Below, one piece after another: positions 54,816 to 56,681 of a DNA stretch of 64,000 nucleotides. This DNA comes from an uncultured Gammaproteobacteria bacterium (GTDB lineage Bacteria > Patescibacteriota > Patescibacteriia > Magasanikbacterales > GWA2-37-8): contig CAYOXC010000001.1 in NCBI GenBank assembly GCA_964407865.1, positions 109,642 through 173,641 of the forward strand. Reading direction: 5' to 3'. How positions within the stretch are numbered: the stretch's first letter is position 1; the number at the start of each line of letters is the position of its first letter. The notes beneath the pieces were generated by a model, which had not been told where the DNA came from, searched no databases, and worked only from the letters and a program-made list of their open reading frames with translations. Made by a program: the position numbers and the translations under genes.

Positions 54816-56681
54816 TTAGGCAATTGATAATAGATTATTTGGATTTGGGTCGATTTTCCAGTCATCTGGTATGGTATTTGCGATCATTTTCAGTCTTTGT
54901 TTATAGTTTTTATAGTTTAATTTAATGATAATAATTCTGTGAATTTTACCTCGCATTGTTTCCGGTGATGCTAAAAAAGGACCGTTAATCTTAACATCAC
55001 CTAGCGTTTGTGTCAAGGTTTGAAGGCTTTTAAATAAGCGGTTAGATTCACGGTCAGCAGAGACTTTTGAGCCGGCATAAATTAACCTAACTAAATATTG
55101 ATGAGGCGGATAACTAAATACTTGTCTTTCGGTTAGCTCTGTTTCATAAAAAATTGCAGGGTTATAGAGGCCTTGAAAAACATGGTGTTCTGGATGTGAC
55201 GTTTGAATATATAGTTGGGATTGTTCTGGTAGTTTAAGCTGTGATTGTCGTAAATTTTGCCAAAGAAACTCAGTTGCCCGGTATTCTGGTATGGCCAGCG
55301 TTGAATCAGGGTCTGCAAAAACCATGACTTCTAAGCGAGGCCACAAAAGATTATACCAAGCATATTTTGTTCCAACAATAATCTTACTGCCTGGAAATTT
55401 AATTTCCTTTAATGTAGCGGGGTCATTTTTTTCAATTGCAACGATTCTTTTTTTAGGCAGTATTTTTTTTAATTCTTGGGCTATACCTTCTGCCCCGGGG
55501 GACATCATCCTATAGCTAGGCCCTGAGCAAGTCGGGCAGTTTATGCTGAGAGGTTTTGATTCTCCACAAAACAAACATGTCAATTTTTTACCGCTTTCAA
55601 AATAGGTCATTGGCCGACGGCAGATTGAGCAATTAAAAAGGTAGCCGCAGTCACGACACAAAACGGCACTGGATGTTCCTCGGCGATTGACAAATATAAA
55701 TGCATCGCCGGTAGTCGATTGGAGTGATTCGATAACATCTGATGCGATATGACTTGCCTGAGTGCTAGTTCTTTCTTGTACCGCATCGATAAATATAGGA
55801 CTCGGAGTTGAGTGTTTTTCAACTTGTCCAGCGGCATCATAAACGCCTTGTTTGGCAAAATAATATGAATCTACAGAAGGTGCTGTGGACATGAGATATA
55901 GTTTTGCGCCTGAATATTTAGCAAGCATTAATGCTGCGTCTCGCGTATGAAATCTTGGAGCCATGTCCCATGACTTATAATCCGGGTTACCTTCGTCGTC
56001 AATAATTATATTTTTTAAATTAATCCATGGAAGAAAAATAGCTTTACGTGTTCCGATGGCGACTGAATTTTCATCAGATCTCACGTTTAACCACAAATCA
56101 AACATATCTTTTTCTCCCATTTCACCGCTTACAGTAAGGGGTTTTTTAGAGAGAGCTGAGTTTAACAGTTCAAACATTGTTGTGATATTTGATATTTCTG
56201 GTACTAAAACCAATGTTTGTCCGCGTTCTTGAGCAATCTTAGTTATTATTTTATTTCGAGATTCAATATCTTGATAAGATACAAGAATGGGTTTCTGAGG
56301 TTCAAATATTTTATTATCATCACAAACAATGAGTCGATTTTCAATTTTCGCAATCTTATTTTTTTTAAGTGGCAATAGGGCTGATTTTAAAACAAAACCA
56401 ATTGGAGCGCGATAGAATTCGGAAATTTCAATACAAAATTCAATTAGATATGCCGGAATTAAAGGTTCTTTGGTTACAATTGAATGTATATTTTTTAGTT
56501 TATGTTCCTCAATTTCTGATGTATCAGAAATTGTTTTAACAATGCCAAATTCTTTTTTATTGCGAAAGGGAATAATGACAAGCTGTCCAACCAGAAGTTC
56601 ATTTTCAAAATAACCCGGTAAATAATCTAAATACCGGAGGTTTGAAGGCATCCTCCTTAAGGGGATAATTTGAACACGCAT
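54816..56681 (-). CDS. priA: Primosomal protein N' (PriA) homolog that lacks the Walker A P-loop.
   Basis: The PriA zinc-binding region CRDCGYLFNCSICRRPMTY...CLFCGESKPLSINCPTCSG is present. A DExH-like IIIDDEGN is present. No GxxGxGK[TS] occurs anywhere; the aligned position reads ILVSYQDIESRNK. Confidence 0.75.
   Translation of the reverse strand: MRVQIIPLRRMPSNLRYLDYLPGYFENELLVGQLVIIPFRNKKEFGIVKTISDTSEIEEHKLKNIHSIVTKEPLIPAYLIEFCIEISEFYRAPIGFVLKSALLPLKKNKIAKIENRLIVCDDNKIFEPQKPILVSYQDIESRNKIITKIAQERGQTLVLVPEISNITTMFELLNSALSKKPLTVSGEMGEKDMFDLWLNVRSDENSVAIGTRKAIFLPWINLKNIIIDDEGNPDYKSWDMAPRFHTRDAALMLAKYSGAKLYLMSTAPSVDSYYFAKQGVYDAAGQVEKHSTPSPIFIDAVQERTSTQASHIASDVIESLQSTTGDAFIFVNRRGTSSAVLCRDCGYLFNCSICRRPMTYFESGKKLTCLFCGESKPLSINCPTCSGPSYRMMSPGAEGIAQELKKILPKKRIVAIEKNDPATLKEIKFPGSKIIVGTKYAWYNLLWPRLEVMVFADPDSTLAIPEYRATEFLWQNLRQSQLKLPEQSQLYIQTSHPEHHVFQGLYNPAIFYETELTERQVFSYPPHQYLVRLIYAGSKVSADRESNRLFKSLQTLTQTLGDVKINGPFLASPETMRGKIHRIIIIKLNYKNYKQRLKMIANTIPDDWKIDPNPNNLLSIA

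Follow-up and report, generated by a model that had tools for sequence, protein, structure and literature searches.

By cryo-electron microscopy (cryo-EM), Escherichia coli PriA recognises a fork through the pocket of its 3′-DNA-binding domain (3′BD), a loop of HD1 that is wedged into the junction, and a pore formed by the Cys-rich region (CRR), HD2 and the C-terminal domain (CTD) around the lagging-strand single-stranded DNA (ssDNA) (PMC10175261). The substitution K230R by itself ends the activity of the E. coli enzyme as ATPase, helicase and translocase (PMC5778457; PMC4504706), and cells carrying it (priA300) are nearly wild type, with restart supported through PriA-PriB (PMC5778457). PriA from Deinococcus radiodurans has degenerate Walker motifs and neither ATPase nor helicase activity, and it retains its interaction with DnaB (Lopper, Boone & Morrow 2015, PMC4504706); it binds ssDNA and forks with dissociation constants of ~215 nM and ~109 nM respectively, near the affinity of the E. 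coli protein (PMC4504706). A 2017 review gave Deinococcus-Thermus as the sole exception to the conservation of the PriA helicase (PMC5778457). Here we analysed a 64-kb stretch of a Patescibacteria contig (CAYOXC010000001.1, positions 109,642 to 173,641; hereafter the window), which encodes on its minus strand, at 54816-56681, a PriA homologue of 621 amino acids (aa) plus stop codon. Judged by the sequence, its nucleotide-binding site appears to have been taken apart as one unit, with a shortened or deleted P-loop and without the DExH His, the Lys-Gly of motif V or the arginines of motif VI.

The open reading frame (ORF) was assigned to PriA from the ORF list, a family model, phmmer, an AlphaFold2 model and Foldseek. 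The NCBIfam model TIGR00595 priA (“replication restart helicase PriA”) has a cut-off of 230.35 bits, which the protein clears with a score of 256.8, and all lineage-specific sub-models of PRK05580 score it under their own cut-offs. Among Pfam profiles, PriA_3primeBD (PF17764) matched residues 17-102 with an E-value of 2.4e-15, and weak matches were found to the PriA Cys-rich region (Zn_ribbon_PriA, Zn_ribbon_6) and to the PriA C-terminal domain (PriA_C, residues 526-614). A phmmer comparison with the solved E. coli and Klebsiella pneumoniae PriA sequences gave an E-value of 1.6e-44, and its helicase-core alignment starts at query residue 147, equivalent to E. coli residue ~239 and thus past Walker A. 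Automated annotation gives the protein the TIGR00595 name, “replication restart helicase PriA”, and relatives carry in their sources the name “primosomal protein N' (superfamily II helicase)”; the label of helicase follows from the pass against the family model, although all ATPase motifs are missing.

We then aligned E. coli K-12 PriA and 115 homologues, canonical PriAs included, with MAFFT and tabulated key positions. Per-site conservation counts given below refer to the 95-member clade of the query, and counts of Cys residues to 114 aligned sequences. A 114-sequence alignment was also used for the AlphaFold2 model, which reached a mean predicted local distance difference test (pLDDT) of 94 and a predicted template modelling score (pTM) of 0.92. 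The model has the overall fold of PriA, with two predicted RecA-like superfamily II (SF2) lobes, the CRR in lobe 2 and a CTD. When it was compared with the PDB using Foldseek, the top nine matches were all PriA chains, the best of them 8fak_H (TM score 0.81), which is E. coli PriA in the cryo-EM complex of PriA, PriB and fork. The second match was the winged-helix (WH) deletion protein of E. coli PriA (6dcr, TM 0.71), K. pneumoniae PriA 4nl4 (apo or ADP-bound) also scored TM 0.71, and the next families after PriA, Mfd and RecG, reached TM 0.37 or less. The model is thus closer to fork-bound 8FAK than to apo PriA structures.

The best explanation of these data is that the gene is the resident priA of a Magasanikbacteria-type genome of the Patescibacteria, or candidate phyla radiation (CPR), and that its product is a pseudohelicase, as the published definition of the term combines PriA descent with Walker A and B catalytic residues that are not conserved (PMC4504706), both of which were found here.

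The former ATP site in the protein and its relatives

The initial annotation, made from the letters of the window, had reported a PriA homologue of 621 aa at 54816-56681 with no P-loop, with a divergent segment at the position that normally reads LLhGvTGSGKTEVY and with a DDE box that is kept. All of this agreed with our alignment. A search for the pattern [AG]x4GK[ST] found no P-loop in the 621 aa. The shortened and degenerate motif I, ILVSYQDIESRNKII (56244-56288, minus strand, residues 132-146), was placed by MAFFT opposite the canonical E. coli motif I WLLAGVTGSGKTEVY, the aligned core segment being YQDIESRN. The equivalents of E. coli G224, G227 and G229 are Y/H, E/K and E, with not a single Gly among the 95 clade sequences, and the equivalent of Thr231 is not conserved. 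The distance from strand beta-1 to motif Ia is 28 residues, as compared to 32 in canonical PriAs, so that the loop is ~4 residues shorter. In the structure model, just three residues lie between strand 132-135 and helix 139-150, a connection that would leave no space for a phosphate-binding loop.

The other motifs of the site have changed as well. Altered motif II lies together with the aromatic-rich loop at 55938-56009 (minus strand, residues 225-248), where IIIDDEGN (225-232) stands opposite VIVIDEEHD: the DDE box is there as described, with DEEH turned into DDEG, a clade form of (D/T)DEGN and Gly at the position of the DExH His in 81/95 members. In relatives, the first Asp of Walker B varies between Y, F, R, T and others. 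Degenerate motif V, GTKYAWYNLLWP (55338-55373, minus strand, residues 437-448), reads GTKYAWYN against the canonical GTQMLAKG, with GT retained and with the equivalents of K544 and G545 replaced by Y and N in the query and by P/A and H/Y/R in the clade. Degenerate motif VI, LRQSQLKLPEQ (55221-55253, minus strand, residues 477-487), has no arginine fingers; its QSQLKLPE stands opposite QVAGRAGR, and the positions of R584 and R587 are not conserved in the clade. Motif I, the DExH form of motif II, and motifs V and VI of an active SF2 helicase are thus all absent. Over the former ATP-site positions, the mean frequency of the top residue in the clade is 0.52, with an 11% match to the canonical consensus, as compared to a mean of 0.59 over all columns. 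From these motifs we infer that the 621-aa PriA lacks ATPase and helicase activity.

The initial annotation had raised two alternatives, that a P-loop is present intact but shifted and that the sequence contains an error, and both were rejected. The alignment with PriA orthologues revealed no shifted motif, and no shifted or alternative-frame P-loop was found in the six frames of the window or in the three frames of 56150-56450. The six-frame search located P-loops only in DnaB, ClpB, TsaE and a TraG-like ATPase. Likewise, an assembly error was ruled out, as Logan contigs of two further runs, SRR14492173 and SRR14492171, encode the identical 621-aa protein with the same neighbours. That a sequencing, assembly or frameshift artefact removed the P-loop has accordingly next to no probability. 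Nothing that would favour it came to light: there is no N in the window, stop codons crowd the two remaining frames of 56150-56450, which are also free of P-loops, two independent runs agree, and hundreds of relatives are in the same state.

To these relatives we came by several routes. A word-indexed search retrieved ~105 clusters of homologues of 610-650 aa, none with a P-loop, whose source names, where given, were Candidatus Magasanikbacteria or Patescibacteria group. An exhaustive HMMER search of 50%-identity representatives returned, as its best 150 matches, proteins mostly of 600-660 aa and some shorter fragments; 133 further proteins, mostly 50%-identity representatives, were fetched and again none had a P-loop (0/133). 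Scanning the species-representative genomes of GTDB yielded 48 loci, and all 45 full-length ORFs among them (45/45, 616-701 aa) lacked both the P-loop and GRxGR. The loss is common to all 95 members of the clade, whose protein identity ranges from ~30% to 68%, so that what had been noticed in one protein turned out to hold throughout its relatives (95/95 clade members, 133/133 further proteins and 45/45 genomic orthologues). Among a total of 382 full-length PriAs that were fetched, 291 had neither motif I nor motif VI, 89 had both and 2 were mixed, a split from which it appears that the ATP site vanishes as a unit.

The loss extends beyond the clade of the query. A second family of Patescibacteria, resembling P0105 (P0277-P0328) and accounting for 44 clusters among the matches listed, has ~28% identity to the query, and motifs I, II, V and VI are missing from it too. 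P0113, a protein of 795 aa, retains a long N-terminal region and has lost motifs I and VI, and P0309 is motif-less and adjoins the motif-intact P0306 in a neighbour-joining tree. This tree, which is crude, midpoint rooted and probably subject to long-branch effects, groups most motif-less sequences in two large clades and places a few others (P0309, P0113) singly among canonical PriAs. It suggests that the ATP site was lost more than once; because of its rooting and the probable long-branch effects, it does not settle the number of losses. Nor is the loss CPR-wide, since a compact PriA of 670 aa from Peregrinibacteria/Gracilibacteria has GITGSGKT, DEEH and QVAGRAGR intact.

DNA-contact elements and the proposed function

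The elements by which PriA touches DNA have had a different fate. The 3′BD occupies 56376-56681 (minus strand, residues 1-102; PF17764), and its pocket residues D19, Y20 and K63 are the counterparts of D17, Y18 and K61 in E. coli, which have roles in the 3′-end pocket (PMC5778457); they are conserved in 91/95, 95/95 and 89/95 clade members respectively. Motifs Ia (PE), Ib (GTRxA) and IV (NRRG) are retained in the query and in the clade. In the aromatic-rich loop (ARL), YKSWDMAPRFHTRD, residues K236, D239, P242 and R243 are invariant (95/95) and S237 is nearly so (94/95). In E. coli the loop inserts as a wedge at the junction of the fork (PMC10175261; PMC5175346), and it has also been said to couple the binding of DNA to the hydrolysis of ATP (PMC5175346). 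Taken together, the DNA-contact positions (Ia, Ib, ARL, IV and the 3′BD pocket) have a top-residue frequency of 0.92 and match the canonical consensus at 79%.

The CRR (55527-55658, minus strand, residues 342-385) contains four CxxC pairs predicted to bind two Zn, and its eight Cys residues (C342/345/351/354/369/372/382/385) are kept in at least 90% of the sequences. The conserved N-terminal DNA-binding domain and the Cys4/Cys4 zinc-binding insertion of the initial annotation were both recovered. The CTD (54819-55106, minus strand, residues 526-621; PriA_C weak, 526-614) ends in a conserved WKIDPNPN; its D611 and P614 are at least 90% conserved or invariant, and the domain is modelled with a pLDDT above 89.

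What is missing on the DNA-binding side is the WH domain. Only 26 residues (clade median 25) separate the 3′BD from lobe 1, as compared to 116 in E. coli (Ec105-221) and 145-191 in canonical PriAs, which leaves no WH domain in this protein but a short linker (56292-56375, minus strand, residues 103-130) that AlphaFold2 models as a single helix at 107-116. As the WH domain is missing from some motif-intact PriAs too, it is not universal in the family. Of the residues at which E. coli PriA docks PriB, S481, T482 and H483 are not conserved and D438 is kept.

The three elements with which E. coli PriA recognises a fork are those that are conserved here, and for this reason we propose that the 621-aa PriA is probably an ATP-independent protein that recognises forks or D-loops and nucleates the reloading of DnaB. 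By this proposal, abandoned forks or D-loops would be recognised without ATP, the conserved ARL would sit at the fork junction, and the lagging-strand ssDNA would be held by the surfaces of lobe 2, the CRR and the CTD. Once bound, the protein would serve as the base on which DnaB is reloaded, with or without the help of a further loader, and the lagging-strand unwinding of canonical PriA would be either unneeded or left to another enzyme. The presumed client is the replicative helicase encoded in the window at 33220-34704 (minus strand), a DnaB with an intact Walker A (ARPSVGKT) and with Pfam matches to DnaB_C (E-value 6.6e-98) and to the N-terminal domain (5.8e-35). Binding of forks and recruitment of DnaB are both inferred for this protein.

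Several points weigh against this proposal. The absence of ATPase activity is itself deduced from the lost motifs and from precedent. The acidic pair D229/E230 is kept in 88/95 and 91/95 clade members, and position 142, in the first turn of helix alpha-1, is basic (R in the query, K or R in 80/95); these residues could have a structural role or a new ligand role. The strong conservation of the ARL in a protein without an ATP site can be explained only by the second role of the loop, at the fork junction. As the E. coli WH domain touches the parental duplex (PMC10175261), its loss might weaken fork specificity. In a Pfam scan of 40 ORFs of the window, which left aside ~15 ORFs of a sugar cluster (14.4-25.9 kb), we did not find DnaC/DnaI, DciA, DnaD, PriB or DnaT. 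Finally, the genome may encode, beyond the 64 kb, a second PriA of the canonical type or some other restart helicase.

The conserved D229/E230 and K/R142 are also what speaks for a protein that is still an ATPase or helicase, using either a non-canonical nucleotide site built from these residues or the weak additional site for nucleotides that has been proposed for PriA. We consider this very improbable. There is no glycine-rich loop, and beta-1 and alpha-1 are linked by three residues; the Thr231 equivalent is unconserved, motif V has lost its KG and motif VI its two arginines, and relatives replace the first Asp of Walker B with Y, F, R, T and others. In E. coli, K230R alone is enough to inactivate the enzyme, and in the clade the ATP-site positions evolve faster than the average of the protein.

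A different objection concerns the role rather than the chemistry. The protein could be a repurposed binder of DNA structures, which still recognises branched DNA or 3′ ends and has lost its role in reloading DnaB; it might protect or block forks, mediate recombination, or serve a process tied to its conserved neighbours. The combined loss of the helicase motor and the WH domain would fit such a protein, as would the lack of any primosome partner among the 40 scanned ORFs, the PriB-docking S481/T482/H483 that were not retained, and the LigB/Memo-like gene that is its invariant upstream neighbour. However, the surface that is specific to fork recognition in restart (3′BD pocket, ARL, CRR and CTD) is conserved in full, the gene occupies the priA-def-fmt position, and D. 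radiodurans PriA retains DnaB binding. Furthermore, PriB is limited to some lineages, so that the loss of its docking residues is expected. On balance, we hold repurposing to be unlikely, and ATP-independent fork recognition with DnaB reloading to be the preferred reading.

This is also close to what the initial annotation had deduced, namely that the protein is unlikely to be an ATP-driven helicase and may act as a scaffold for fork recognition and loading, and it stands as the best-supported interpretation. The extent of the loss had been understated there: motifs V and VI, the change from DEEH to DDEG, the WH domain and the fixation across the clade have to be added, as has the precedent of D. 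radiodurans.

Gene neighbourhood and other genes of the window

We compared the neighbourhood of priA (51995-62433 of the window) with that of loci L004-L051 from the genome scan. As far as contigs reach, related genomes have a conserved gene order of clpB, an S11 D-Ala-D-Ala carboxypeptidase gene (dac), a LigB/Memo-like gene, priA, def, fmt and a Wzy-like gene. The LigB/Memo-like gene (56685-57476, minus strand; PF02900, E-value 4e-35) ends 3 nt upstream of the priA start in the window, and it lies directly upstream of priA at every locus whose contig extends there. Downstream, a single nt separates the priA stop codon TAA (54816-54818) from the likely ATG start, at 54814, of the peptide deformylase gene def (54326-54814, minus strand; PF01327, E-value 4.4e-48, with the match beginning at residue 18 of a longer ORF). 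Next to it, the methionyl-tRNA formyltransferase gene fmt (53409-54329, minus strand; PF00551, PF02911 and synteny) overlaps the def stop by 4 nt. At 46/48 loci def adjoins priA, and the contigs of the other two, L020 and L051, stop inside priA or shortly behind it. The tight spacing of the LigB-like gene, priA, def and fmt fits co-transcription. We take the priA-def-fmt arrangement to be that of Bacillus subtilis as well.

CPR genomes are small and have shed many repair functions, and a large share of the ancestral function of this protein is gone. One could therefore see in the gene a decaying relic or pseudogene that is heading for loss in a reduced genome. This is hardly credible, as intact ORFs of 616-701 aa were found for 45/45 full-length orthologues, the DNA-binding residues are invariant in a clade with identities of ~30% to 68%, the AlphaFold2 model is confident (pLDDT 94), and the tight gene spacing comes with conserved synteny.

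Other genes of the window touch replication. RecR is encoded at 32141-32743 (minus strand) and lies, together with DnaB, ~20 kb from priA. The window start clips an ORF at 27-680 (plus strand) that encodes the C-terminal part of the AAA+ protein RarA/MgsA (MgsA_C, E-value 8e-59), a maintenance factor of the replication fork. A 598-aa ATPase at 38172-39968 (plus strand) combines signatures of TrwB/TraG/VirD4-type coupling proteins with those of HerA/DUF87, has the P-loop GKTGMGKT and lies in an otherwise housekeeping region; it is preceded by a gene of the HIT family and by a 722-aa ORF without a Pfam match (35529-37697).

The alanyl-tRNA synthetase (41895-43772, plus strand) has only 625 aa, with catalytic and SAD domains, and RpoA (46511-47362, plus strand) has 283 aa, with Pfam matches to its N-terminal and insert domains and no match to the alpha-CTD at an E-value threshold of 1e-5. 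Both look like shortened housekeeping proteins typical of reduced genomes. A cluster of sugar-nucleotide and glycosyltransferase (GT) genes runs on one strand from ~9600 to ~31500 (plus strand) and includes GDP-mannose dehydratase, epimerases, DegT aminotransferase, GT1, GT2 and GT4 glycosyltransferases and UDP-glucose dehydrogenase; a Wzy-TPR protein at 7093-9198 was listed with it. The G+C content is 0.32-0.34 at 20-26 kb, as compared to about 0.37-0.39 elsewhere in the window. A 1124-aa ORF (3542-6916, plus strand) and the 169-aa ORF that precedes it (3024-3533, plus strand) had no Pfam match at E-values of 1e-5 or below.

Implications and comparison with known PriA proteins

At least two deeply diverged families of motif-less PriA were seen, with ~290 sequence clusters in all. 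We tentatively suggest, as an idea that may well prove wrong, that the motor of PriA was dropped early in large lineages of Patescibacteria/CPR and that restart begins there with an ATP-free, structural PriA, a minimal restart initiator. As the fit of the model is better to 8FAK than to the apo structures, such a protein might stand ready in the “open CRR” conformation of fork-bound PriA, and DnaB would be handed over to the fork either by this protein itself or by a partner yet to be discovered. If so, the helicase function of PriA would be dispensable over long evolution in a sizeable part of bacteria, beyond Deinococcus-Thermus. Many Patescibacteria form a second and much larger group, with a fuller loss of the ATP site and with DNA-contact residues under strong constraint. 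Should biochemistry bear out the pseudohelicase, the essential and conserved job of PriA would prove to lie in structure-specific recognition of forks and in recruitment rather than in unwinding, and annotation pipelines would be found to label as “replication restart helicase” proteins that are almost certainly unable to act as helicases. A compact, WH-less and ATP-independent PriA of 621 aa would then also be available for structural work on the recruitment of DnaB without known PriB, DnaT or DnaD; how DnaB is recruited where these proteins are not known is listed as an open question in a review. Full-text searches found no paper that links PriA with Patescibacteria, CPR, Parcubacteria or Saccharibacteria, which, given their incomplete coverage, is weak evidence of novelty.

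With E. coli and K. pneumoniae PriA (PDB 4NL4, 6DGD and 8FAK), the 621-aa protein shares the 3′BD, two RecA-like lobes, the two-Zn CRR, the CTD and the aromatic-rich loop. E. coli PriA is a protein of 732 aa that has the WH domain, motifs I, V (KG) and VI, and DEEH, whereas the 621-aa query has none of these and reads DDEG. Two natural features of the query have laboratory counterparts in the E. coli mutants priA300 (K230R) and K230A/D on the one hand and in the WH deletion of 6DCR on the other. These mutants are single engineered changes in a background that has the partners PriB, DnaT and DnaC, whereas the query combines both losses and has them fixed by evolution.

A second comparison is offered by the short, WH-less PriAs of Peregrinibacteria/Gracilibacteria and Omnitrophota (the P0321 cluster, P0333 and P0348), which have ~650-675 aa and are similarly compact. 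These proteins keep GITGSGKT, DEEH, GTQM..KG and QVAGRAGR, all of which the query has lost, and loss of the WH domain can thus be separated from loss of the ATP site.

The closest counterpart is D. radiodurans PriA. Both proteins are PriA orthologues with off-consensus Walker A and B motifs, and both would follow the same logic, that of an ATP-independent restart initiator. By published description, the PriAs of Deinococcus-Thermus match motifs I and II poorly and have Arg in place of Lys in GKT (PMC4504706). Compared to these, the 621-aa PriA has gone further, as its glycine-rich loop is gone, its motifs V and VI are erased and its WH domain is absent. As the lineage is a different one, the loss in Patescibacteria was presumably independent of that in Deinococcus-Thermus. 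A PriA pseudohelicase is therefore of a kind already known, anticipated in concept by priA300 and by D. radiodurans PriA; what is new in the present case is the lineage, Patescibacteria, the deletion of the P-loop together with the loss of motifs V and VI and of the WH domain, and the occurrence in hundreds of sequence clusters.

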